Positions 36,063 to 48,372 of a stretch of DNA of 64,000 nucleotides are shown piece after piece. Numbering within the stretch: the stretch's first letter is position 1; the number at the start of each line of letters is the position of its first letter. The translations under genes and the position numbers were made by a program. A model generated the notes under the pieces. That model searched no databases. It was not told where the DNA came from and worked only from the letters and a program-made list of their open reading frames with translations. Origin of the DNA: Polyangiales bacterium (GTDB lineage: Bacteria > Myxococcota_A > Polyangia > Polyangiales > Polyangiaceae); assembly GCA_038231275.1 (NCBI GenBank), contig JBBRLQ010000004.1, positions 288,001 to 352,000 on the forward strand. Direction: 5' to 3'.

Positions 36063-36815
36063 TCAGCGGCCCATGCCCCAGACCTCGCCCGTCACCCACG
36101 TCGCGTCCAAGAGCGCGAGGACGACGTGCACGACCTCCTCCGCTGTGCCGAATCGGCCGAGGAGCGAGCGCGTCGCGAGGCGGTGGGTTCGGAGCGGATC
36201 CTTGTCGGCCTCGGGGTCGGCGACGATGCCGAGCTGGACGACGTTGACGCGCACGTCCGGCGCCAGCTCCGCAGCGAGCGCGCGAAGGCCCGTTTGCACA
36301 GCGCCCTTCGCGACGAGGTAGGCGACATGGTTCGTGTACGGCTTGGTGGTGCCCGCGTCGCCGAGCGCCACGACGGCTCCCTTCGCGCGCGCGAGATCTC
36401 CGGACAGCGCGTGCACCAAGAGAAGAGGCGCGACGGCGTGGACCGTGAAAGTGCGCTCGAGATCCTCACGCCGGAGCTCATCGAACGGGGTCCGCGGGAA
36501 GGGGCCGCACGCGAGGACCACGTCGTCGATGGGGCCAATCCCGTTCTGGAGGCCGGCCACGATGCGCTCGACGGCGTCAGGGTGGGAGAGATCCGACGTG
36601 ACGAACGGCGGCGGCCTCTCCCCCTCGCCCGACTTGCCGGCGCTAGCAACCTTGCCGAGCTCCGCCGACAACGCCGCGAGCTTGTTGGGATCACGCGCCG
36701 TCAGGACGACCTTGTCCCCGCGCGCCACGAGCGCGTGCGCGATCGCCACACCTAGCCGGCCCGTGGCCCCGACGACGAGGATCGTGCGTCCGTGCGCGGC
36801 GCTGGGCGGGACCAT
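36063..36815 (-). CDS. SDR oxidoreductase (pteridine-reductase-like)
   Basis: VVGATGRLG, YLVAK (YxxxK), LAPDVRVN, VTGE. Confidence 0.8.
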   Translation of the reverse strand: MVPPSAAHGRTILVVGATGRLGVAIAHALVARGDKVVLTARDPNKLAALSAELGKVASAGKSGEGERPPPFVTSDLSHPDAVERIVAGLQNGIGPIDDVVLACGPFPRTPFDELRREDLERTFTVHAVAPLLLVHALSGDLARAKGAVVALGDAGTTKPYTNHVAYLVAKGAVQTGLRALAAELAPDVRVNVVQLGIVADPEADKDPLRTHRLATRSLLGRFGTAEEVVHVVLALLDATWVTGEVWGMGR

Positions 36816-36946
36816 CCACTTTCCTATACCGCGCTCGCCCGGCCAGGTGAGCGCAAAACGAGGGGGGCCCGGTGGTCCGACCCCACGGCAACCATGCGCA
36901 TTTGCGTAGGCACTCGGGCGAAAACTCGACTACGTATGAGGAGAAG

Positions 36947-37246
36947 ATGAGCGACAAGCGCTCCCCGAATGACTCGGTTACTTCCGGCGACACGTCGCCC
37001 GGCGCGATCCCGCACGTCTTGAGCGACGCCGACGTGACCAAGCTATGGGACCGCTTCAAGGGGGGCTTCGTGGTCCGATGCCCGAAGGACGACGCGCCGC
37101 TGGCACTCGCCGTCGACGGCGCCGCCAAGAGCTACCGCCTCGTGTGCACGCGATGTGGAAACGCGTCGCTCTGGTTCGAGACCAACGGCGGCGTCATCCA
37201 AGTGCGCAACGCCGACGAGCCCGTCGGCCCCGGCGCCGACGACTGA
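36947..37246 (+). CDS. Small putative zinc-ribbon protein
   Basis: GAGGAG RBS before ATG 36947; CPKD...CTRCG. Confidence 0.6.
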   Translation: MSDKRSPNDSVTSGDTSPGAIPHVLSDADVTKLWDRFKGGFVVRCPKDDAPLALAVDGAAKSYRLVCTRCGNASLWFETNGGVIQVRNADEPVGPGADD

Positions 37247-37323
37247 ATCGAAACGCGACTTGCGTCGCGGCTGAAACCGCGCGCGCCGCGTAGCCACCTT
37301 GACAGGATCGTCCGTCGTACCCA

Positions 37324-37346
37324 AATAGAGTACTAGATACTCTTTT
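37324..37346. promoter_or_regulatory. Putative NrtR operator AAtAGAGTActagaTACTCTtTT (core GT-N7-AC), downstream of a TTGACA at 37299-37304
   Basis: AT-rich palindrome with arms AGAGTA/TACTCT, 10-30 bp before the PP2C start; GT at 37330-31 and AC at 37339-40 are separated by 7 nt; an nrtR gene ends the operon. Confidence 0.7.
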
Positions 37347-37355
37347 CGAGGTACG

Positions 37356-38138
37356 ATGTCATACCCCCTCCCCCCCTCCAACTTCGCCGCGCTCGGCGGC
37401 TCCGTGATCGGAAGCGATCATCGGCGCGCGCTGCGGAACAATCAGGACGGCCTCGCGTTCGCGAGCGACGACGGCTTCATCGTCGCCGTCGTGACCGACG
37501 GGTGCTCGTCGGGGCGGGCCAGCGAGGTCGGCGCGCGGCTCGGCGCGGCGTACCTCGCGGCGCGGACGCTCGACGTCGCTCCCCGCGCGCTGGACGCGCA
37601 GGCGACGGCGTCGAGCGTGGCGGCGGCGGTGACGGAATGGTTGGACGATGTCGCCTCTGCGTTCGGCGCGCGCCGAAAAGACGCGATCGCGGACATGCTC
37701 CTCTTCACGTTCCTCGTGGCGGTCGTCGGCCCCACGCGCGCGTTCGTCTTCGGCGTCGGCGACGGCGTCGTATCACTCAACGGGCTCACCCTGGCGCTCG
37801 ATGCCGGGCCCGACAACGCGCCCGCCTACGCCGCGTACGGTCTCCTCGGCGCCGCGCCGCCCCCGATCGTCCACGTCGACGTCCCGACGCCGCTCGTCCG
37901 CTCCCTCGCCATCGCGACCGACGGCGCCCTCGATCTCCTCGCGCGCGCCGACGAAGCGCTCGACGGCGGCGCCCCGCAGCGCGGGCTCGACCAGTTCGAG
38001 GACGATCCCGTCTACCTCAAGAACCCGTCGCTCCTCCAGAAGCGCCTCGTCGTCATCGGCGAGCGCAACGCTCGACTTCGGGACGACACGACCGTCGCCC
38101 TCGTACGCCGAAGGGATGTGCCGCCGTGCGTGTCGTGA
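37356..38138 (+). CDS. PP2C-like protein phosphatase (TerY-P triad type)
   Basis: GSDH...NNQDG, VVTDGCSSG, GVGDG, IATDG, DDTTV. Confidence 0.85.
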   Translation: MSYPLPPSNFAALGGSVIGSDHRRALRNNQDGLAFASDDGFIVAVVTDGCSSGRASEVGARLGAAYLAARTLDVAPRALDAQATASSVAAAVTEWLDDVASAFGARRKDAIADMLLFTFLVAVVGPTRAFVFGVGDGVVSLNGLTLALDAGPDNAPAYAAYGLLGAAPPPIVHVDVPTPLVRSLAIATDGALDLLARADEALDGGAPQRGLDQFEDDPVYLKNPSLLQKRLVVIGERNARLRDDTTVALVRRRDVPPCVS

Positions 38139-39871
38139 TCGAAGGAGAGCTGGTCACGCTCGACGACGCGTCGATCCTCGGACAAGGAGGAGAGGGGCGC
38201 GTCTACCGACTCGGCGCCCGCGCCGTGAAGATCTTCCACGCAATCTCGAAGGAGAAGGCGCAGAAGCTCGAGGCGTTTCCTCGCGGCCTCCCGCGCGGCG
38301 TCGTCGCGCCGATTCATCTCGTGCGCGATCCGAAGAGCGACGCGATCGTCGGCTACACGATGGAGCTCGTGGCCGGCGCGACGGACGCGATGCGCCTCTC
38401 GTCGCGGCGCTTCCGGCAGGGGGCCATCAGGAACGACGTCGTGTGCGCCATCCTGCGACGCTTGCACGCGCTGGTCGGGCAGGTCCACGCGCGCGACGTG
38501 ATCGTCGGCGACCTGAACGACGGCAACGTGGTCTTCACCGGCACGCAGCCGTGGCTGATCGACACCGACTCGATGCAGCTCCGCGGGCACCTCTGCACCG
38601 TCGCGCACGAGCGCTTCCTCGACCCTCGCCTCTTCGGCGCCGATCTCACGCGCGCCCCGGCGTTCGACGCGGCGAGCGATTCGTACGCGCTGGCGGTCAT
38701 GGCGTTCGCGAGCCTCCTCTACGTTCACCCGTACGGCGGCCAGCACAAGACGATCCCGACGATGCTGCGCCGCGCCGAGGCGAGTCACAGCGTGCTGCGG
38801 TCCGACGTCGCCTACCCGCGCGCCGCGACGCCGTTCGCGGTCCTCACGGACGATCTCCTCCATCATTTTTCTCGGACGTTCGATCACGGCGCGCGCTCTC
38901 CGATCTCCGAGGCGCTGCTCTCGCCGCGCTGGACGACGTGCTCGTGCGGCATCGAGCACGCGCGCGTGAAGTGCCCCGTGTGCGCGACGCGGGCGCACGT
39001 GCCGGGTCCGGTCGCTGCAGGGGTTCGCGTCATGCGTGTCTTCGCCACGAAGGGGCGGATCGTCGCGGCGGCCGTGCAGGGCCGCGTCCTCGCGTACGCA
39101 CACGTCGACGACGCCGACGTTCTCCGTCGGGAAGACGGTATCGCGATCCCCGTCGCCCTCTCGCCCACGGCGCGCGTGAGGATCGCCGGCGCCAGCACGT
39201 GGATCCACGACGGCGGCGTCGCTGTCCAGGTCGTGCGCGGCGAAATCGTCCTACGCGCCGAGGCTGCGGCGATGGGTGCCGGCCTCGCCGGCGTGTTTCT
39301 GGCCAACGGTGACTGGCTCACGGACGCCACCACCACCGCGCGGGTAGGGCAAGTCCTCGCGGGGACCACCTGGCTCGAGGTCGGCGATCGCTTCGGCGTC
39401 GGCTTCTACCGCGCGGGCGCCATCACGGTCGGGTTCGTCGTTCGCCCCGGGCGCGGAATGCTCCGCGTGGAGCTGCCGGTCATTCACGGGCGCCTCGTCG
39501 ACGCGTCGGTCACGTTCGACGGCGCGCGCGCCCTCCTCGGCATCGCCACCGAGACGGGCGGTCACGTCTCTCACGCGCTCCACGTGGTGCAAGACGACGG
39601 CGAAATCCTCGCACGCGCCAGCGGCTCGCCCGAGTCGCGTCCGCTCCTGGCGAGCGTCTTCGGCAAGTGCATGGCTGGCGGCGCGATCGTCTCGGCCACC
39701 GACGATGGGCTCGTCCTCGCGCGTCCCGATCTCGCGACCGGCGATCTCGAAGAGACCCGCACCTTTCCCGCGACGCGCGATTTCGTCGCCGCGGGCGTCG
39801 ACATCCTTGCGGGGCCGCAGGGCTCCGTTTACCTCGTCCAGACGGGCGAGATCCTTCAGCTCACCATTTGA
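38126..39871 (+). CDS. TerY-associated-type Ser/Thr kinase + zinc ribbon + beta-rich C-terminal domain
   Basis: LGQGGEGRVY, AVKIF, IVGDLNDGNV, LIDTDS, VHPYGG; CSCG...CPVC; GTG start overlaps the PP2C end. Confidence 0.8.
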   Translation: MRVVIEGELVTLDDASILGQGGEGRVYRLGARAVKIFHAISKEKAQKLEAFPRGLPRGVVAPIHLVRDPKSDAIVGYTMELVAGATDAMRLSSRRFRQGAIRNDVVCAILRRLHALVGQVHARDVIVGDLNDGNVVFTGTQPWLIDTDSMQLRGHLCTVAHERFLDPRLFGADLTRAPAFDAASDSYALAVMAFASLLYVHPYGGQHKTIPTMLRRAEASHSVLRSDVAYPRAATPFAVLTDDLLHHFSRTFDHGARSPISEALLSPRWTTCSCGIEHARVKCPVCATRAHVPGPVAAGVRVMRVFATKGRIVAAAVQGRVLAYAHVDDADVLRREDGIAIPVALSPTARVRIAGASTWIHDGGVAVQVVRGEIVLRAEAAAMGAGLAGVFLANGDWLTDATTTARVGQVLAGTTWLEVGDRFGVGFYRAGAITVGFVVRPGRGMLRVELPVIHGRLVDASVTFDGARALLGIATETGGHVSHALHVVQDDGEILARASGSPESRPLLASVFGKCMAGGAIVSATDDGLVLARPDLATGDLEETRTFPATRDFVAAGVDILAGPQGSVYLVQTGEILQLTI

Positions 39872-39904
39872 CGCATCATCTGAAACCGACCGGAGGTAAA
39901 CGCC

Positions 39905-40876
39905 ATGACTCTTCCCATCCCCGCGATCTACGAAAAGAAGCTGGTCTCGGAGGTCTACATCGAGCGCGCGAGCGTCGTCGCCGATCTCGCCGAGGAGCAC
40001 GCCAAGAAGTACGGAGTGCTCCCTGCCGCGCAGGACAAGTTCCGCATCTGCGCGTTCGGCATCGACGCGCAGGTCGGCTTCTGCACGCCAGGCGCGAGCC
40101 TGTTCGTCCCCGGCGCGGTCGAGGACACCGATCGCGCGATCCGTTTCATCTACCAGAACCTCGACAAGATCACGGCGCTCCACTTCTCGATGGACACGCA
40201 CCGCGTCTTCCAGATTTTTCACCCTGCTTTCTGGATCGACGCGCATGGCAAGCACCCGGGGCCCTTCACGCCGATCTCGCATGAGGACGTGAAGACCGGG
40301 AAATGGCAGCCGATCAGCCATCCAAAAGAGGCGCTCGAGTATACGAAGAAGCTCGAGACGAGCGGCAAGTACACGCTCAATGTGTGGCCCTACCACACGC
40401 TGCTCGGCGGCCTATCGCACGCGCTCGTGCCGGCTCTCATGGAGGCGTCCATCTTTCACGCGGTCGCGCGGCGCCACCAGACGCACTTCGAGACGAAAGG
40501 GACCCACGCGATGACCGAGAACTACTCGGTCCTGTCGCCCGAAGTGCAGGAGCTCGGCGGCAAGGCGGTCGGCGGCTTCAACACGGCGTTCTTCCGGATG
40601 CTCATGGAGTACGACCGCATCTACGTGTACGGGCAGGCCAAGTCGCACTGCGTGCTGTCGACGCTGAACGACATGCGCGATCACATCCGCTCCGTGGATC
40701 CCGCGCTCATGGACAAGGTGTGGATCCTGGAGGACGCGATGAGCCCGGTGCCGGCGCCGCCCATCGATCCGCTACCTCCGTCGCTCGACTTTCCGAAGAT
40801 CGCCGAGCGCGCCATCGCCGACCTTGCCCGCGCGGGCATGCACGTCGTCAAGACCACCGATCCCATCGTGATTTGA
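39905..40876 (+). CDS. Nicotinamidase-like cysteine hydrolase (isochorismatase superfamily)
   Basis: IDAQVGF (Asp), MDTH, VWPYH, FETKG (Lys), GQAKSHCV (Cys); GGAGG RBS. Confidence 0.8.
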   Translation: MTLPIPAIYEKKLVSEVYIERASVVADLAEEHAKKYGVLPAAQDKFRICAFGIDAQVGFCTPGASLFVPGAVEDTDRAIRFIYQNLDKITALHFSMDTHRVFQIFHPAFWIDAHGKHPGPFTPISHEDVKTGKWQPISHPKEALEYTKKLETSGKYTLNVWPYHTLLGGLSHALVPALMEASIFHAVARRHQTHFETKGTHAMTENYSVLSPEVQELGGKAVGGFNTAFFRMLMEYDRIYVYGQAKSHCVLSTLNDMRDHIRSVDPALMDKVWILEDAMSPVPAPPIDPLPPSLDFPKIAERAIADLARAGMHVVKTTDPIVI

Positions 40877-40890
40877 GAAGGAGCAACGCC

Positions 40891-41685
40891 ATGACGACAT
40901 CCACGGAAATTGCGGAGATTCAGGCACTCCTCTCGAACGCCCAGGCCGCCGGCACGATCGGCGCGGCCACGTCCTATGCGCTGTCCGGTCACCTCGGCGC
41001 GGTCGTCGTCGCGGGGGCGGCGGGGCTCGCGATGGAAGACATCGCGTCGAGCGATGTGACGCTCGTGACGGTCCTCATCGACGCGTCGTCGAGCATCCAT
41101 TCGCGCGGGCTCGAGGACGCGGTGCGTGAGGGGCAGAACCTCCTCGTCGACGCGTTCGACAAGGCCAAGGAGAAGGACAGCGTGCTCATGGCGCTTTGGA
41201 CCTTCAACGACGAGCTCCGGGTTCATCACGCGTACGTGCCGGTCGACACGTGCAGCCGCCTCGATCCGTCGACGTACGCCGGCGTCGGCGGCACGCGCCT
41301 TTACGACACGTGGTGCGACGCGCTCGCCGCGAACGTGGCCTACGCGCAGCGCCTTCGCGACGGAGGAACACCGTGCAAGAGCGTGGTCGTGGTGATCACC
41401 GATGGCGAGGACTGCGGCTCACGGAGGACCGCGAAGGACTGCGAGAAGCTCAGTCGCGAGCTGCTGGCCAGCGAGCAGTTCACGCTGGCATTCGTGGGCG
41501 TGGGCAGCGACGTGGACTTTCGCGCGGTCGCCAAGCGAATGGGCGTGCCGGACGGGAGCGTCGCGGTGCAGGCCAACACGTCACCTGCGGCGCTGCGGCA
41601 GATGTTCCACATGGTGAGTCAGTCGGCGATCCGCGCGAGCCGCGCCAACGTCACGCCGGGCGGCACGGGCTTCTTCGGTCCGTAG
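40891..41685 (+). CDS. TerY-like von Willebrand factor A domain protein
   Basis: MIDAS motifs LIDASSS, GGTRLYD and VITDGED; AGGAG RBS. Confidence 0.85.
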   Translation: MTTSTEIAEIQALLSNAQAAGTIGAATSYALSGHLGAVVVAGAAGLAMEDIASSDVTLVTVLIDASSSIHSRGLEDAVREGQNLLVDAFDKAKEKDSVLMALWTFNDELRVHHAYVPVDTCSRLDPSTYAGVGGTRLYDTWCDALAANVAYAQRLRDGGTPCKSVVVVITDGEDCGSRRTAKDCEKLSRELLASEQFTLAFVGVGSDVDFRAVAKRMGVPDGSVAVQANTSPAALRQMFHMVSQSAIRASRANVTPGGTGFFGP

Positions 41686-41726
41686 ACGTCGCGAAGGGCC
41701 GCCGGCATCGGGTATGGTGACGGCGC

Positions 41727-42446
41727 ATGTCGACCTCGGAGAGGAAGTTCCTCGCGGCCTACCGCCCCGGCCGCTTTCCCAGGCCGGCGGTGACGGTGGA
41801 CGTCGTCGTCTTCACGCTGCGCGACGCGGTGCTCCAGGTGCTGCTCGTTCAGCGCGGCGAGCACCCCTTCAAGGGGCGCTGGGCGATCCCGGGGGGCTTC
41901 GTGCGCGTCACCGAGGAGCCGGCCGATCAAGGAGAGGATCTCGACGCCGCGGCTGCGCGCGAGCTCGAGGAGGAGACGGGCCTCGGGACGCGCGCGCACA
42001 GCCTGCCGCTCGAGCAGCTGCGCGCGTTCGGCGCGGCGGGGCGCGATCCTCGGATGCGTGTCATCAGCGTCGCCTACTACGCGCTCGTCACGCCCGATCT
42101 CGCGCCGCTCGTTCGCGCCGGCGGCGACGCAGCGCACGCGGCGTGGCACCCGATCGAAGCCGCGCGCCTGCTGCCCCTCGCGTTCGATCACCGCGACATT
42201 CTCGAAGCCGCCACCGAGCGTCTCCGCACCGACATCGACAGGCTCGCCCGCGCGCTCGTGCCCGAGACCTTCAGCATCGCCGAGCTGCGCGCGGTCCACG
42301 AGGCCGTGCTCGGTCGCGCGCTCGATCCGGGCAACTTTCGGAAGCGCGTTCTTCGCATGCTCGAAGACCGCGTCCTCGAGACTGCGCCGGGCAAACGGGT
42401 CACCGCATCGAAGCCCGCCCGCGTCTACCGCTTTGCCAAACGGTAA
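41727..42446 (+). CDS. nrtR: NrtR-family Nudix + winged-HTH transcriptional regulator
   Basis: VTVDVVVF, WAIPGGF, RELEEETGL, RDPR.RVISVAY, LAFDH; wHTH FSIAELRAVHE..LG..LDPGNFRKR...PARVYRF. Confidence 0.88.
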   Translation: MSTSERKFLAAYRPGRFPRPAVTVDVVVFTLRDAVLQVLLVQRGEHPFKGRWAIPGGFVRVTEEPADQGEDLDAAAARELEEETGLGTRAHSLPLEQLRAFGAAGRDPRMRVISVAYYALVTPDLAPLVRAGGDAAHAAWHPIEAARLLPLAFDHRDILEAATERLRTDIDRLARALVPETFSIAELRAVHEAVLGRALDPGNFRKRVLRMLEDRVLETAPGKRVTASKPARVYRFAKR

Positions 42447-42478
42447 TTGGTTACCACTTAAGTGGTAACCAGGTTACC
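42442..42478. promoter_or_regulatory. Compound palindrome: perfect 24-bp TGGTTACCACTTAAGTGGTAACCA overlapping GGTAACCAGGTTACC
   Basis: Perfect palindrome at 42448-42471 and a 15-bp palindrome at 42464-42478; AT-rich and intergenic. Confidence 0.55.
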
Positions 42479-42550
42479 TTTTAGACCGCGTAAACTATCG
42501 ACAACATGTTTGGATCGCTTCCTGCGTAGAGCTGGCGCGGAGGCGTTCAA

Positions 42551-43993
42551 ATGGTAACTTATGGTCACGGTGCATCCTCGATCCTCGTGCTCGGCGGTCT
42601 CTTCGCGGTGGCGTGCGGTACGCTCGCGCCCATCGGATCGGACCCTTCTCACGCGGCCGCTCAAGACCCCGACGCGTCCATCCCCGCCACGGCGACCGTG
42701 CCCGGCGCGTACATCCCCGGCTCGACGACGCCCGAGGCGAAGTACCCGGGCCACGGCTTCATCGTTCACGAGTGGGGGACGAACACGATCGTCGTCGGCT
42801 CCGACGGATCGGTGCAGCGCGGCCTTCACCACGAAGAAGAAGACCTCCCGGCCTTCGTTTACGACCGCATCAAGGCGGGCGGGGTGACGGGCTCGGTGGA
42901 AGTGAAGATGGAGACGCCTGTCCTCTACTTCTATTCGGACGCTGCGCTCGACGCCGAGGTCCAGGTGTCGTTCCCCGCCGGCGTGATGACGCAGTGGTAT
43001 CCGTCGGCGCGCGGCTTCACGCCGATGCTGGCGGACATCGCAGGGAGCGTCGTCGATCCGGTGATGGACCCGAAGTTCTCGCCGAAGCTCGACGCGTGCA
43101 TCCAACGGTTCTCCGACGGCAAGGCGATTGAAAACGGGCAGCTCGACTGGGGCACCGTGCACATCGGCGCGCGCACCGATCGCCTGACCGCGCCCGACGC
43201 GCCGCTCGCCCAGTACACGTGGAGCCACGCCCGCGCGGTCGACGCGAACCCGCTGCGCGTGCAAAAGCCCGGCGCGGCCGTCGACCACGAGGAGGAGCGC
43301 TTCCTCTTTTACCGCGGCCTCGGGAACTTCGCGCTGCCGGCGCGGATCACGAGCGGCGGACCGGGCTCGTACGAGGGGAGCGGCGTTTCGATCCTCGATC
43401 GCGACGGCGCCAACCCGCTCGGGTCGACGTTCGTGCTCGACGTCGGCGCGACCTCGGCCAAATTCGCCGTTCACCCGGAGGGGCTCGCGGCCAGCCACGG
43501 CGCGCTGATCGAGTCGCTCTCTGGCGCGACGTCGATGCCGCTCGACGCGTACGCCGACGCGCTCGCGGCCGCGATGACCGCCGAGCTCGACAAGACGGGG
43601 CTCTACCACGACGAGGCCGTGGGGATGGTGAGCACGTGGCGTCGTCAGTGGTTCCGGACGCCGGGCCTTCGCGTCCTCTACTTCGCGCCGCAGGCGTGGA
43701 CCGACACGCAGATCCCTCTCGCCATCACGCCGAAGCCCGATCGCATCACGCGCGTCATGGTGATCCGCACCGAGGTGATCACGACGGAGCTCGAGTGGGT
43801 CGACGTCGCGGCGGTGCGCGGGATCAACGCGGGCGACGCGACGGCGACGGCGCATTTCGACGGGCTCGGGCGCTTCGCGGAGCCTCGTCTGCGACGCGCG
43901 CGTCAGCTCGTTGGCGACGCGGGGCCGTCTGCTGCGGCGACGCTGCTCGCGAAGATCTCCGGCGCGAACACCACCCTCGGTACCGGCGAATGA
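42551..43993 (+). CDS. Conserved hypothetical lipoprotein (VHEWGT / METPVLYFY type)
   Basis: Lipobox AVAC; VHEWGT, VKMETPVLYFY, TQWYP, ERFLFYRGLG, GLY.DEA..M..TW. Confidence 0.7.
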   Translation: MVTYGHGASSILVLGGLFAVACGTLAPIGSDPSHAAAQDPDASIPATATVPGAYIPGSTTPEAKYPGHGFIVHEWGTNTIVVGSDGSVQRGLHHEEEDLPAFVYDRIKAGGVTGSVEVKMETPVLYFYSDAALDAEVQVSFPAGVMTQWYPSARGFTPMLADIAGSVVDPVMDPKFSPKLDACIQRFSDGKAIENGQLDWGTVHIGARTDRLTAPDAPLAQYTWSHARAVDANPLRVQKPGAAVDHEEERFLFYRGLGNFALPARITSGGPGSYEGSGVSILDRDGANPLGSTFVLDVGATSAKFAVHPEGLAASHGALIESLSGATSMPLDAYADALAAAMTAELDKTGLYHDEAVGMVSTWRRQWFRTPGLRVLYFAPQAWTDTQIPLAITPKPDRITRVMVIRTEVITTELEWVDVAAVRGINAGDATATAHFDGLGRFAEPRLRRARQLVGDAGPSAAATLLAKISGANTTLGTGE

Positions 43994-46900
43994 CGGCGAG
44001 CGCCCCTCCCCTTCGCCTCGATCACCCGCGCTACGAGGCGGGCGAGGCGCTCGGGCAGGGCGCGCAAGGTCACGTGCTGCGCGTGCGCGACCGGGAAAAT
44101 CCTGGGCGCGCGCTCGTCGCGAAGGTGCTGCGGGGAGCGGCAGAGGGGTCGCTCGACGCCGAGTTTGCGCTGCTCGCGAGGCTCCGGATCGAGGGCCTCG
44201 CGCGCGCGCACGACCTGGCGCGCGACACGTCGAGCGGGGTCCTCTTCTTGGTCGAGGACTTCATCGACGGGCCCGACGCGGCCCGCCACGTTGCGGCGGA
44301 GCCGACGCCGGCGTCGAAGAACCGCGCGCTGGCGCGCATCCTCGCCGATCTCGCGCGGACCCTCGGCGCGCTCCATGAGGCGGGGTTCGTGCACGGCGAT
44401 CTCAAGCCCGAGCACGCGCGCGTGACGCCCGCGCGGACGATGCTGCTCGATCTGGGCGCGGCGATCGCGCGGACGGGCGATGCGCGCCCGGAGATGGTGA
44501 CGCGCGCGTACGGCGCGCCCGAAGTGCTCGCGGGAGGCGCGGCGTCTCCCAGCGCCGACCTCTTCGGGCTCGGCGCGCTCGCGTGGGGCGTCGCGACGGG
44601 AAGGCCGCCGCGCGGGGGCACCGGCGCGCTGCGTGACCACGCGCCATGGGTCGCACCGAGCCTCGCGGCCACGATCGAAGCGCTGCTCGCCGCGCACCCC
44701 GCCGACCGACCTCGCTCCGCGAGCGAAGTGCTCGCGCGACTCGGCGCGTGCGTCGATCTCGGCGCATGGCAGGCGTCGTCGGGCGCGCCGGCGGGGCGCG
44801 CGAGAGAGTGGGCCGAGGCGGCGCGCAACCGCGCGCACGTCCTCTACGTGACCGGCCCTTCCGGCGCGGGAAAGAGCCATCTGGTGCGGGAGCTCGTCGC
44901 GACGACGCTCCTCGAAGGTCGCCCCGCGCGTGCGTTGGCGTTTCCGAGCGAGGACGGTCGTCTGCTCCCGCGCCTCACGGCGTTCTTCCGAGGAGAGCGC
45001 GACGCGTTTCCGTTTCACGTCGCCGATGGCGGTGGCGGCGTCGGGGAGCCAGTCCTGCTCGTCCTCGACGATCTCGACGCGGCGCGCCCGGAGGTCCGTA
45101 CGGCGCTCGAGGCTCTGCGTTGCCGGGGCGGTGATCCGCTCGTCCGCGTCGTCGCGACGTGCCGCCGCGCGCCGAGGGGTGCGATCACGCTGGAGCTGGC
45201 GCCGCTCGCGGCAGATGCGTTCGAAGAGCTCGCCGTGAGCATGGGTGTGCCGGCGGACGAGGCGCGCGCGCTCCATACGTCGTGCGAAGGCCTGCCCGGC
45301 TGGCTCGTCGCCGCGCGCGGTCGCGTGCCGTTGACGCGCGACACGGCGCTGGCGCGGACGAAGTCGCTGTCGACCGACGCGCGAGATCTCCTCGCGGTGA
45401 TCGCGCTGCTCGGTGGGGAGGCCACGCGCGCGCAGCTCGCACGATCGACGACGCTCGAAGTGTTTGCGCCGCTCGCCGAGCTCGCTCGTGCCGGGCTCGT
45501 CTCGCGGCGAAGGGCCGAAGGCGGTCAAGAGGAGGCGAACGCCACGCTCGCCTCGCCGGGAATCGCGCGGGATCTCGCCGCCGCGCTCTCGACCTACGAT
45601 CTCGCCGATCGAGCGGCGGAGGCGGCGCTGGGAGACGGCGTGCCGGCCGCGACGCTGCTCTCGGTCGCGCTTTGTCCGACCCCTCCGCGGCGCCGCGCGG
45701 AGCTGCTCGCGGCCGCCGCGACGCGCGCGCGCGCCACCGGAGCGCGAAGTGACGAGCTCGACGCGCTGCTCGCGTCGGCGGCCGATCCGGCGGCGCGGAC
45801 TGCTCCGCTGCTCCTCCGCCTCGAACGCCTCACGCGCGATCTCGGCGCCGCGAACGCGCATCCGCAAGTTCTGGTCTGGCTCGATGCGCTCGGCGACCAG
45901 GACGCAAGCGTCCGTCCGCTCGCGCTTCGCCGTCGCGCCGAGGCGAAGGCGCGGGCCGGAGCCGCAGACGACGCGCGCGCGACGGCGGCGCTCGCCCGCG
46001 AGGCCGCAAGGGCGCGCGGGGACGCGGCGCTCGAGGCGCTCTCTCTGGCGACAGCCGGGGCGGTGGCGCTGTTCCGCGCGGACTGGCCGGAGGCGGAGCG
46101 CGCGCTGATCGAAGCGCGATCCCTGGCGTCCGCATTTCCGCCCGACGATCCCGAAGAGCTCGCGCGGCTCGATCACAACCTCGGGGTCGTCCTCTTGTAT
46201 CGGAACCGTCACGCCGAGGCGGCGCACGCGTTCGAGCGCGCGTTGGCGGTGAAGCGCGCGCTCGGAGATTCGGCGGGCTGCCGCGCGTGTCTCCTCAACC
46301 TCGGGCTCGCGTGGACGCGCGAGGGGCGATTCGAGGAGGCCGAGCGCGCGCTGACCGAAGCCACGCTCCTCGCGGAGTCGCTCGAGCAGACGACGGGACG
46401 CGCGTGGACGCTCGCCGCGCGCGCGGATCTCGAGATCCGGCGGCGCCGACCGCGCGACGCCGAGCGCTTCACTGCAGAGGCCGAGGCGTCCAGTGACGCG
46501 CTCCCGCCGGCCGTTCGCGCGGACCTCGCGCTGCTGCGCGCGGAGATCGGGCTCGAGGACGGGGATGGTCGGGCCGCGCTCGCGGCGCTCGATGCGCTCG
46601 ATACGTCGCTGCGCGCCGACGACGCGCTGATCGACGCCCGCGCGCACGTCCTCACGTCCCGCGCGTTCATGGCCATGGTGCCTCCCGAGCCGAGACGCGC
46701 GGCGCGAGCTGCCGTCGCCGCGCTTCGGCGATCGCGCGAGGCCGCCCTCGCCGAGCAGGAGGCCGCCGCCGCGATCGCCCTCACGCAGGCGCGCACGCGC
46801 GCGCGATCGGCCGCGCGGTGCTACGAAGCGCGTGCGATGCCGGTCTCCGCCACGCCCGCTACGCCGTCGACCCCTCGCGACGCCCCGCTCTGGGCGTGGC

Positions 46901-48372
46901 TCGTCGAGCTCGGCAACGGCGCGCCGGTCGACGGGGCGGGAACGTCGCTCGCGCTCGCCATCGTCCGCGCCGCCGGAGCGGAGCGCGCGTTCGTCGCGGT
47001 CGTCGGGAATGACGGCGCGGTGCGCGTGGCGTGGGGCGCCGATCTCGATGGGCTACCCCTGCAAGACGCCAAGGATCGAATCGACGCCGCGGCGCTCGCC
47101 GGCGCGCTGCGCGCGGAGGGGCCTCTTTACCAACGCAACGTCGAAGGCCCCGCCGGCACCGGCTCGCGCTTGGCGATCGCGTCCCGCGGCGGCGATCCGC
47201 GCGCGGTCGTCGTCGTCGAGCATCGGTTCGCCCCCGCGCGATTCGACGGCGTCGATGGGGAGCTCGCGTCAAGGTGGGGGACGATGGCTTCGGTCCTCGC
47301 GCGGACCCACGCGAGCTCCGCAAGCCCCACATCCACGAGCGGCGGCGGCCTCAGCGCCGTCACCCAATCTTCTCGCATGCCCGTCTCCGCGGCGCGCGAG
47401 CTCGAGTCGAGCTCCGCGCCACTCCGAGAGGCGCGACGCGAGTATCCGACCATCCTCGGCGAGAGCCGCGTCCTCCGCCGTGCGCTCGCCCGCCTCGACG
47501 CGGCGGTCGACAGCGATCTGCCCGTCCTCTTGACCGGCGAGACCGGCACCGGCAAGGAGGTCTTTGCGCGCGCGCTGCACGATCACGGCGCGCGCGCTGG
47601 CCGACCCTTCGTGGCGGTGGACTGCGCGTCGCTCCCCGACGCGCTCTTCGAGGCGGAGCTCTTCGGCCACGCGCGCGGATCGTTCACCGGGGCCGAGCGC
47701 CCGCGCGCCGGACTCTTCGCACGCGCCGGCGAGGGGACGCTCTTCCTCGACGAGGTCGGCGAGCTCCCACTCCAGAGGCAGGCGTCGCTTCTGCGCGTGC
47801 TCGAGACGCGGCGTTTTCGCGCCGTGGGGAGCGACGAAGAGCAGACGTTCTGCGCGCGCGTCGTCGCGGCGACGAACCGGGATCTCGAGGAGGCGGTCCG
47901 CGCCGGGACCTTCCGGCAAGACCTCCTCTATCGTCTCAGGGTCCTGGACGTGACCGTCCCTGCCCTTCGCGCGCGCGCGGACGATATCCCGATGCTCGCC
48001 GCCGCGTTCCTCGCGCGCGCGGGCAGCGACGGGACGCTGGCGCCCGACGCCGTGGACGCGCTCACGGCGTACGCGTGGCCCGGGAACGTCCGCGAGCTGC
48101 TCCATCACATGCAGCGCCTCGCCGCCGCGGGCCTCGAGCGCGTCGAGATCGAGCACCTCCCGCGCGATCTGCGCGGCGCGATCCCGCTTCATTCGCGGCG
48201 TGACGACGCCTCGCGCGAGTCGCGGGAGCGCGCCGAGGTGACGCGCGCCCTCGCGGCGACCGGGGGAAACATCACCCACGCCGCCGCGCGCTTGGGGCTC
48301 ACGCGTCACGGCCTCAAGAAGCGAATGTTGCGGCTCGGCATGCGCGCCGCGCTTCCGGTTGGTAAGAGATAG
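43990..48372 (+). CDS. Ser/Thr kinase-like + P-loop NTPase + TPR + GAF + sigma54 activator (AAA+) + Fis HTH
   Basis: LGQGAQG, VHGDLKPEH, YGAPE; GPSGAGKS and LVLDDLD; TPR helices; GETGTGKE, ELFGHARGSFTGA, LFLDEV, ATNRDL, FRQDLLYRL, WPGNVREL; NITHAAARLGL. ATGA coupling to the upstream gene sets the start at 43990. Confidence 0.88.
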   Translation: MTASAPPLRLDHPRYEAGEALGQGAQGHVLRVRDRENPGRALVAKVLRGAAEGSLDAEFALLARLRIEGLARAHDLARDTSSGVLFLVEDFIDGPDAARHVAAEPTPASKNRALARILADLARTLGALHEAGFVHGDLKPEHARVTPARTMLLDLGAAIARTGDARPEMVTRAYGAPEVLAGGAASPSADLFGLGALAWGVATGRPPRGGTGALRDHAPWVAPSLAATIEALLAAHPADRPRSASEVLARLGACVDLGAWQASSGAPAGRAREWAEAARNRAHVLYVTGPSGAGKSHLVRELVATTLLEGRPARALAFPSEDGRLLPRLTAFFRGERDAFPFHVADGGGGVGEPVLLVLDDLDAARPEVRTALEALRCRGGDPLVRVVATCRRAPRGAITLELAPLAADAFEELAVSMGVPADEARALHTSCEGLPGWLVAARGRVPLTRDTALARTKSLSTDARDLLAVIALLGGEATRAQLARSTTLEVFAPLAELARAGLVSRRRAEGGQEEANATLASPGIARDLAAALSTYDLADRAAEAALGDGVPAATLLSVALCPTPPRRRAELLAAAATRARATGARSDELDALLASAADPAARTAPLLLRLERLTRDLGAANAHPQVLVWLDALGDQDASVRPLALRRRAEAKARAGAADDARATAALAREAARARGDAALEALSLATAGAVALFRADWPEAERALIEARSLASAFPPDDPEELARLDHNLGVVLLYRNRHAEAAHAFERALAVKRALGDSAGCRACLLNLGLAWTREGRFEEAERALTEATLLAESLEQTTGRAWTLAARADLEIRRRRPRDAERFTAEAEASSDALPPAVRADLALLRAEIGLEDGDGRAALAALDALDTSLRADDALIDARAHVLTSRAFMAMVPPEPRRAARAAVAALRRSREAALAEQEAAAAIALTQARTRARSAARCYEARAMPVSATPATPSTPRDAPLWAWLVELGNGAPVDGAGTSLALAIVRAAGAERAFVAVVGNDGAVRVAWGADLDGLPLQDAKDRIDAAALAGALRAEGPLYQRNVEGPAGTGSRLAIASRGGDPRAVVVVEHRFAPARFDGVDGELASRWGTMASVLARTHASSASPTSTSGGGLSAVTQSSRMPVSAARELESSSAPLREARREYPTILGESRVLRRALARLDAAVDSDLPVLLTGETGTGKEVFARALHDHGARAGRPFVAVDCASLPDALFEAELFGHARGSFTGAERPRAGLFARAGEGTLFLDEVGELPLQRQASLLRVLETRRFRAVGSDEEQTFCARVVAATNRDLEEAVRAGTFRQDLLYRLRVLDVTVPALRARADDIPMLAAAFLARAGSDGTLAPDAVDALTAYAWPGNVRELLHHMQRLAAAGLERVEIEHLPRDLRGAIPLHSRRDDASRESRERAEVTRALAATGGNITHAAARLGLTRHGLKKRMLRLGMRAALPVGKR

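Follow-up and report, generated by a model that had tools for sequence, protein, structure and literature searches.

Bacterial NAD+ salvage is controlled at transcription, by NrtR, NiaR and NadR. An operon in the genome of a Polyangiales bacterium raises the question of why a regulator of the NrtR family should share an operon with a protein kinase and a protein phosphatase. The operon lies on the + strand at positions 37356-42446 of a 64-kb stretch of DNA (assembly GCA_038231275.1, contig JBBRLQ010000004.1, positions 288,001 to 352,000), here called the window, whose G+C content is about 70%. Its five co-oriented genes encode, in this order, a PP2C-type phosphatase, a Ser/Thr kinase, an Asp-Lys-Cys hydrolase, a von Willebrand factor A (vWA) protein and an NrtR-family regulator. 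A preliminary description had taken the locus for a defence, antitoxin or stress module outside salvage. We lean towards another answer: the operon would be an ADP-ribose-derepressed entry step of nicotinamide salvage, equipped with a dedicated phospho-switch. Our confidence is high for the part of this reading that concerns the operon, its nicotinamidase and its NrtR. That the switch gates the nicotinamidase, or a complex containing it, after translation is a more tentative proposal, to which we give somewhat less than even weight.

A nicotinamidase-type enzyme within a five-gene operon

The genes are tightly spaced, with intervals of -13 (the PP2C and kinase genes overlap), 33, 14 and 41 nt, and the open reading frames (ORFs) and their translations bear out the initial observation that all catalytic and metal-binding motifs are intact. 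As far as sequence conservation can tell, it is confirmed that the five genes form one real operon and are conserved together: a genome of the same genus has all five in the same order, and 20 of the 80 loci surveyed below join the enzyme to the phosphatase, kinase and vWA triad. Such an arrangement is far outside what chance would give: several phyla repeat the gene order, with protein identities of 30-45%.

The hydrolase (39905..40876, + strand, 323 aa) is a nicotinamidase-type enzyme by profile, fold, and catalytic and metal residues, as had been supposed from its Asp-Lys-Cys motifs, and it is predicted to hydrolyse nicotinamide; we describe it as a putative long-form analogue of PncA and Pnc1. 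Its translation contains the motifs IDAQ, DTH, WPYH, KG and SHCV. The family is large: of 8000 scored candidates 2884 match, the best 120 of them with at least 69% identity, and many of these matches carry the name 'nicotinamidase' from NCBI or JGI; representatives of 50%-identity clusters give another 2149 matches at E <= 0.001. A direct phmmer comparison of the hydrolase with PDB sequences returned chance matches only, to cytochrome P450 reductase. With a 64-member family profile, the best PDB matches are nicotinamidases: 2h0r (yeast Pnc1; 2.1e-12), 2wt9, 3pl1 and 1ilw, the closest solved relatives being yeast Pnc1 and the PncA proteins of Acinetobacter baumannii, Mycobacterium tuberculosis and Pyrococcus horikoshii. 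The structural comparison used an AlphaFold2 (AF2) model built with the family alignment (pLDDT 97.4); a single-sequence model was discarded (pLDDT 38). In a Foldseek search with the retained model nicotinamidases rank first, led by 2wta (1.2e-13, TM-score to target 0.75) and followed by Pnc1, Drosophila Naam, Leishmania PNC1 and M. tuberculosis PncA, with other amidases of the superfamily at lower ranks.

The predicted catalytic triad, D54, K198 and C249, is conserved in alignments of 64 and of 15 homologues and aligns with the yeast Pnc1 motifs. D97 and H99 are nearly invariant (at least 90%) and H164 is invariant among the 64 homologues, and all three are invariant among the 15; the DtH and WPyH motifs to which they belong align with DWH and WPVH of yeast Pnc1. 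We take these three residues to be the metal ligands. An Asp-His-His site of this kind typically marks nicotinamidases rather than isochorismatases.

The enzyme thus shares fold, Asp-Lys-Cys and Asp-His-His with PncA and Pnc1 (2h0r; 2wt9/2wta; 3pl1; Drosophila 9u8m), but its identity to solved structures is only 12-21%, it has no Pfam match, and at 323 residues it is longer than PncA (about 180-235), being extended at the N-terminus by about 45 residues and also at the C-terminus and carrying an insertion of about 60. Such features invite the view that the hydrolase acts on some other amide, for instance another pyridine or an ADP-ribose-related amide, so that the operon would not strictly be one of salvage. 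The superfamily does include many other amidases, neither Pfam nor NCBIfam has a model that matches the protein, and its TM-score normalised to the query is only about 0.5. We nevertheless regard this alternative as quite improbable, given that the aspartate and both histidines align with the D-x-H and WPxH motifs of Pnc1, that all top profile and fold matches are nicotinamidases, and that genes resembling pncB, which encodes nicotinate phosphoribosyltransferase (NAPRTase), adjoin the enzyme in 9 of the 20 full loci and in 12 of the 51 triad-less loci described below. Two of 15 scanned relatives match Pfam Isochorismatase (PF00857), one (P0139) at 42.7 bits, above the 27-bit cut-off, and the other (P0190) just below it, at 26.2 bits.

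The rest of the genome is relevant here as well. Its four other isochorismatase-family genes have their best matches in models of BiuH, RutB or YcaC type, all below cut-off. Since these four genes are best matched by such models, and a NAPRTase is encoded elsewhere, the window hydrolase is the best candidate for the missing pncA step of this genome.

The triad and its association with the enzyme

The PP2C-type phosphatase (260 aa; 37356..38138, + strand) matches Pfam PP2C_2 at 1.2e-15 (58 bits, cut-off 24) and has the metal-binding DG motifs and DDTT. The kinase (581 aa; 38126..39871, + strand) starts with GTG and overlaps the end of the PP2C gene by 13 nt. Its kinase domain, which runs to about 38930, is followed by a zinc ribbon of Cys4 type (38939-38983) and, at the C-terminus, by a further conserved domain (39023-39868). 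Its motifs GQGGEG, AVK, GDLNDGN and IDTDS are recognizable, and in an alignment of 11 members G21 and G22 of the P-loop, K35, D129, N131, D132 and N134 of the catalytic loop, D146 and D148 are invariant; the zinc ribbon has one invariant cysteine, C274, and three nearly invariant ones, C272, C283 and C286 (at least 90%). Family models recognize the protein poorly: in Pfam it has only a sub-threshold match to TCAD9, and in NCBIfam it matches the kinase part of lanthionine synthetases (2.2e-09, far below cut-off). Pfam Pkinase weakly matches 7 of the 11 family members, and the best solved relatives are eukaryote-type protein kinases. With the whole kinase, the ESM Atlas yields only unnamed or Pkinase-poor clusters; the C-terminal domain (about 280 aa, conserved in the family) has no match in Pfam, PDB sequences or named Atlas clusters. 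The vWA protein (264 aa; 40891..41685, + strand; Pfam VWA 7.4e-08) has a complete metal ion-dependent adhesion site (MIDAS; motifs DASSS, T and TDG), whose residues D64, S66, S68, T135 and D171 are invariant across 13 homologues.

Two described systems have this composition. TerY-P unites a TerY-like vWA protein with a PP2C phosphatase and with a kinase that has a zinc ribbon fused to its C-terminus (PMC11090510). In Escherichia coli, YegI has Ser/Thr kinase activity by experiment and is encoded together with PphC (PP2C) and YegL (vWA); it is reported to span the membrane twice and its substrates are stated to be unknown (bioRxiv 10.1101/819920). The window operon has the TerY-P architecture: besides its vWA and PP2C proteins it encodes a Ser/Thr kinase bearing a zinc ribbon at the C-terminus, and the kinase is homologous to YegI, hhalign giving a probability of 99.4% (E 5.7e-21) over kinase domain and zinc ribbon, including CPxC. 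The assignment of the triad to this architecture in the preliminary description is thereby upheld. Similarity of the other two proteins is lower, weak between the vWA protein and YegL (probability 67%, E 5.2e-05; otherwise generic Pfam VWA matches) and marginal between the phosphatase and PphC, and none of seven plasmid matches of the vWA protein carries a TerY annotation. Unlike YegI, the kinase has the additional C-terminal domain and no clear membrane segment; unlike TerY-P, the triad is accompanied by a metabolic enzyme and not by DNA-processing or restriction genes.

Is this companionship more than a shared promoter? Among 41 close genomes, including that of the window, ten nicotinamidase loci were compared. 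Four have the order PP2C-kinase-nicotinamidase-vWA, two of them with NrtR upstream, and the same-genus locus alone has the five genes in the window's order. The others comprise one nicotinamidase-vWA-kinase-NrtR locus, one nicotinamidase-NrtR locus, two with the enzyme alone and one too short. A wider search with a 15-row nicotinamidase alignment found 594 nicotinamidase-encoding stretches in species representatives, of which the best 80, not an unbiased sample, were scored for neighbouring genes with hidden Markov models (HMMs) built from the sequences of this analysis. PP2C, kinase and vWA genes surround the enzyme in 20 of these 80 loci. Sets are partial in nine cases (six cut by a contig end, three despite room), and 51 loci have no triad gene, 37 of them with room for one. 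Their labels place the full loci in Myxococcota, Riflebacteria, Gammaproteobacteria, Cyanobacteria, Actinomycetota and several CPR/Patescibacteria metagenome-assembled genomes, labels in which binning errors are possible.

The full loci have metabolic neighbours: NrtR in seven, a divergent pncB-like gene in nine, nadE in three and an ADP-ribosylglycohydrolase in three. In the window itself no pncB, nadE or ADP-ribosylglycohydrolase (ARH) gene is matched by our HMMs anywhere in the 64 kb. The statement that the locus is not a standard salvage operon, with no salvage gene adjacent, therefore holds for the window and fails elsewhere, where pncB-like genes and nadE keep the cassette company. The pncB-like gene encodes a divergent NAPRTase-like protein of 474-504 aa (NCBIfam nicotinate phosphoribosyltransferase models 3.9e-29 to 7.5e-36, below cut-offs; no Pfam match at 1e-5). 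It precedes the cassette or a lone nicotinamidase in Myxococcaceae and Archangium-type loci, standing 5' of PP2C in loci L025-L027, L029, L032, L033 and L039, and occurring also in L031, L044, L048 and L050-L052; in Myxococcaceae-type loci PP2C and kinase are placed between it and the nicotinamidase. The triad-less enzyme, too, often has pncB-like genes, NrtR genes or both beside it, as in Archangium minus and Cystobacter fuscus.

When loci in other genomes of the phylum are anchored on the kinase, the association is closer still. In 19 of the 21 best kinase loci a nicotinamidase lies next door, in the order PP2C-kinase-nicotinamidase in nine and nicotinamidase-vWA-kinase in ten; the remaining two end at the vWA gene. 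These results bear on the possibility that kinase, phosphatase and vWA protein act on targets unrelated to the nicotinamidase and are mere passengers on its promoter. Several facts would suit it: no nicotinamidase residue tracks the triad, most loci of the enzyme family (51/80) are without it, and YegI-type triads occur without the enzyme in E. coli and in eight weaker kinase loci, none with a nicotinamidase within 1.5 kb and six with a weak PP2C match upstream. Yet the kinase subfamily with the C-terminal domain nearly always sits beside the nicotinamidase, and the order kinase-nicotinamidase-vWA or nicotinamidase-vWA-kinase is kept in Myxococcota, Cyanobacteria, Actinomycetota and phage-labelled records. 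We accordingly give little credence to an association by promoter alone. The gene-neighbourhood survey that had been suggested for the locus thus reveals a unit of kinase, nicotinamidase and vWA that recurs across phyla.

A FastTree phylogeny of 96 nicotinamidases indicates how the triad has been distributed. The triad label requires 10-13 changes, at least seven of them forced by well-supported branches, and is clustered on the tree (none of 500 shuffles was as low). Judged from this tree, the triad is an accessory, stable within clades and repeatedly gained or lost on one enzyme family. The triad-less loci and the repeated changes of label fit an accessory control layer on a salvage enzyme. 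A predicted three-chain complex of the vWA protein, kinase residues 262-581 and the nicotinamidase, run without controls, scored 0.00 and speaks neither for nor against binding. An enrichment of Thr197/Thr200 was considered as a signal of the triad and rejected, as only one clade shows it and the triad-linked enzymes of cyanobacteria lack it.

Two loci show peculiarities of their own. At L114 (G264:C11:5362558-5364437) the kinase is split by two in-frame TGA codons in its C-terminal part in an otherwise intact NrtR-PP2C-kinase-nicotinamidase array, which may be a decaying copy or an assembly error. A cyanobacterial cassette with two tandem ADP-ribosylglycohydrolase genes has a 198-aa ORF between kinase and nicotinamidase (L089:6356-6952).

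An NrtR-type operator and its regulon

The last gene of the operon (41727..42446, + strand, 239 aa) encodes a regulator with a Nudix-like N-terminal domain (Pfam NUDIX 1.9e-20; motif RELEEETGL) and a C-terminal winged helix (NrtR_WHD 2.8e-13). Known NrtR operators, 21-bp palindromes whose core is GT-N7-AC, either overlap promoters or precede start codons (PMC2330246). A candidate of this type, ATAGAGTACTAGATACTCTTT, lies at 37325..37345 and ends 10 nt 5' of the PP2C start codon. This 21-mer fits the published consensus, and within it 37327-37343 form a perfect 17-bp palindrome, the sole perfect copy in the 9.28-Mb genome. Half-site scoring of GT-N7-AC sites across this genome retained eight sites, with the operon's operator at the top: three stand out at 13, 12 and 12 of 14, and the next five score 11. 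GT-N7-AC palindromes also occur 5' of the PP2C gene in 11 related loci, found by script in L028, L043, L046, L076, L089, L093 and L095 and by eye in L024 (two), L036, L041 and L101. Myxococcal loci with a pncB-like gene before PP2C have no palindrome in the stretch inspected, directly 5' of PP2C, as would be expected if the promoter sits farther upstream.

As an NrtR-type operator precedes the operon, control by ADP-ribose through NrtR, which the preliminary description had assumed, is plausible. Repressed by its own NrtR, the operon would probably be switched on when ADP-ribose rises after NAD+ consumption. The other two of the three best-scoring sites both stand directly 5' of PARG genes of the same genome. 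One (G000:C1:528935-528955; locus L105) precedes a microbial-type PARG (PF10021 1.5e-48; TIGR02452 8.3e-87), followed by a glutamine-synthetase-like gene; the other (G000:C37:58536-58556; locus L104) precedes a PARG_cat_C gene (PF05028 4e-13). The position of these sites suggests an ADP-ribose and PARG regulon around the operon's NrtR. On another contig, the NAPRTase gene pncB has directly 5' of it a second NrtR paralogue, 43% identical and with a canonical Nudix box (L106:5973-8153; G000:C1:336972-339152); no operator of the window's type was found near this pair. Two TIR-domain genes, one of them a ParA-like ATPase-TIR-pYEATS fusion, are located about 0.5 kb downstream of the pair of PARG and glutamine-synthetase-like genes (L105:10715-13144; G000:C1:531714-534143).

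Operons of nrtR, pncA and pncB are classical in Lactobacillus, Clostridium and Pseudomonas (Rodionov et al. 2008, PMC2330246). The window operon resembles these NrtR salvage regulons in its Nudix-winged-helix regulator beside a nicotinamidase, in the 21-bp GT-N7-AC palindrome near its start, and in the partners pncB and nadE of related genomes. It differs in that its nicotinamidase is a divergent long form outside PF00857, with kinase, PP2C and vWA genes interleaved; the available text of PMC2330246 names no kinase, phosphatase or vWA gene among such regulons, and lists an unexplained nrtX-nrtY.

Further signals frame the operon. A -35-like hexamer, TTGACA (37299..37304, + strand), read from the sequence and to be taken as a lead only, lies 20 nt upstream of the operator. 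A terminator-like hairpin with an 11-pair stem and a T-rich tail (42447..42482, + strand) follows directly 3' of the nrtR stop codon and is the only + strand site of its kind in the region 36800-42700. Just upstream of the operon, a small 124-aa ORF (36872-37246, + strand) without family match has a CxxC...CxxC-like pattern, and the end of this gene is also seen upstream of the cassette in L024.

Salvage and NAD+-centred conflict

A module for anti-phage defence, antitoxin action or stress, as originally proposed, would use the same parts differently: ADP-ribose released from NAD+ by TIR, SIR2 or toxin NADases would derepress the operon, the TerY-P-like switch would execute the response and the hydrolase would remove nicotinamide. 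Modules of the TerY-P-like type have been reported to act against phages on their own (Gao et al. 2020, quoted in PMC11090510), the cassette is patchy and crosses phyla, and the two other best operator-like sites precede PARG genes, one of them about 2 kb from the two TIR-domain genes. There is also a resemblance to the Nudix/WYL operons centred on ADP-ribosylglycohydrolases (ARGs; Iyer et al. 2022, PMC9503650), whose negative regulator, of Nudix-HTH type, is presumed to sense ADP-ribose, which often include an accessory vWA protein and for which a role against viral ADP-ribosylation is predicted; in or beside three of our 20 related full loci an ADP-ribosylglycohydrolase is found. The window, unlike these operons, has no ARG gene by the ARH HMM, and its phosphatase is a PP2C enzyme where those described in the available text of PMC9503650 are rhodanese-phosphatase, calcineurin-like, HD or HAD enzymes. 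The terms nicotinamidase, PncA and PP2C do not occur in the text of PMC9503650.

Other observations oppose a defensive role. The PADLOC check that had been called for yielded no system: no match of the five proteins is better than 2.8e-4, and neither they nor 17 relatives have a TerY-P-named match in PADLOC, which we take to hold TerY-P models. The operon encodes no nuclease, NADase, pore or other toxic effector. Its flanks in the window are membrane proteins, a short-chain dehydrogenase/reductase (SDR) and a kinase-sigma54 regulator, and elsewhere its neighbours are pncB-like genes and nadE. A defence-island context was rejected for the window locus, the flanking genes not being defence genes. 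A very long ORF (43219-48372, + strand; true start probably near 44000) joins Pkinase, an AAA/STAND-like region, TPR repeats, a sigma-54 interaction domain and HTH_8.

Phage-labelled records provide a further argument. Four records of a phage collection match both kinase and nicotinamidase. Three of these, L142, L143 and L144, are huge (462-595 kb), unannotated metagenomic assemblies labelled 'uncultured phage', and all three contain nicotinamidase, vWA, PP2C and kinase genes in that order, contiguous in a single record and dispersed across 7-12 kb in the rest; nadE lies upstream in one, and one shows a weak NrtR-like ORF downstream. The presence of the four genes in all three is unexpected for an anti-phage system. 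Taken with the salvage genes around the cassette, the lack of a PADLOC system and the non-defence flanks, it leads us to set aside the proposal of a module outside salvage, which we consider improbable.

The same records suggest an intermediate view, in which the unit rebuilds NAD+ during conflicts, serving host recovery in bacteria and counter-defence in huge phages, beside the NAD+ reconstitution pathways NARP1-3. A gated entry route into Preiss-Handler salvage would here restore NAD+ after attack by NADases of abortive-infection systems or toxins. Phages are reported to rebuild NAD+ against NAD+-depleting immunity (bioRxiv 10.1101/2024.02.11.579819; PMC13464706), the regulator would sense a product of NAD+ cleavage, and the gene content of the three huge records is as this view would have it. 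On the other side, the records are unannotated assemblies, NARP1-3 use other enzymes, and nicotinamidase, vWA and PP2C go unmentioned in the available parts of the NARP literature searched. That the unit serves as a rebuilding route in NAD+-centred conflict we hold to be about as improbable as the defence module.

The salvage reading with which we began would work as follows, the induction by ADP-ribose, the substrate of the enzyme, and the protein phosphorylation and its target being elements that we infer. Consumption of NAD+, which could be due to NADases or to ADP-ribosyl transfer that PARG or ARH then reverses, would raise ADP-ribose, release NrtR and allow transcription of the operon. 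The nicotinamidase would turn the other cleavage product, nicotinamide, into nicotinate for PncB in Preiss-Handler salvage; a link of the operon to NAD+ cleavage through ADP-ribose and nicotinamide, as first suggested for the locus, is plausible. The kinase-PP2C-vWA switch, of YegI/PphC/YegL or TerY-P-like type, would add a post-translational gate, with PP2C resetting it and the MIDAS vWA protein a probable adaptor or phospho-target, so that nicotinamide would be destroyed only under defined conditions.

Several observations weigh against this salvage reading. The hydrolase has no match to PF00857 or to the NCBIfam nicotinamidase models (E <= 0.01), and the regulator scores 168.8 bits against the NCBIfam NrtR equivalog NF050029, whose cut-off is 400. 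Across clades, the triad's presence is not mirrored by any nicotinamidase residue, and no conserved phosphosite is apparent. A consensus scan yielded no full sigma-70 promoter. The cassette is patchy: 11 of the 41 close genomes have the nicotinamidase and 37 of the phylum's 301 genomes match the kinase (E <= 1e-20), a distribution that would also suit an accessory or conflict role, and the loci surveyed more widely were chosen as best matches.

A bolder extension, which we regard as unlikely though slightly less so than the two conflict readings, is that of a phospho-gated fourth route of NAD+ reconstitution common to bacteria and huge phages. NrtR would read ADP-ribose at transcription, the C-terminal domain of the kinase would read a second signal, and the switch would either send nicotinamide to NAD+ resynthesis or leave it to inhibit NADases, sirtuins and ADP-ribosyltransferases. 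If this were true, Ser/Thr phosphorylation would be a control point of NAD+-centred conflict between host and virus, and orphan YegI/TerY-P triads would gain their first defined output.

A description of the cassette was not found in the literature searched; it may be listed in the TerY-P source paper or in the supplements of PMC2330246 and PMC9503650. What appears to be new is the combination of an NrtR salvage regulon with a TerY-P/YegI-type triad, both parts being already known. The operon appears to represent a conserved layer of control in NAD salvage that has seemingly gone undescribed, and it is probably no anti-phage weapon. A kinase, phosphatase and vWA set that travels with the first enzyme of salvage through several phyla and in records of huge phages would point to post-translational control of this pathway, of which the literature searched has no description. 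TerY-P/YegI-type triads would in turn gain a concrete and assayable partner, one that ties them to ADP-ribose signalling, a currency of phage-host conflict.

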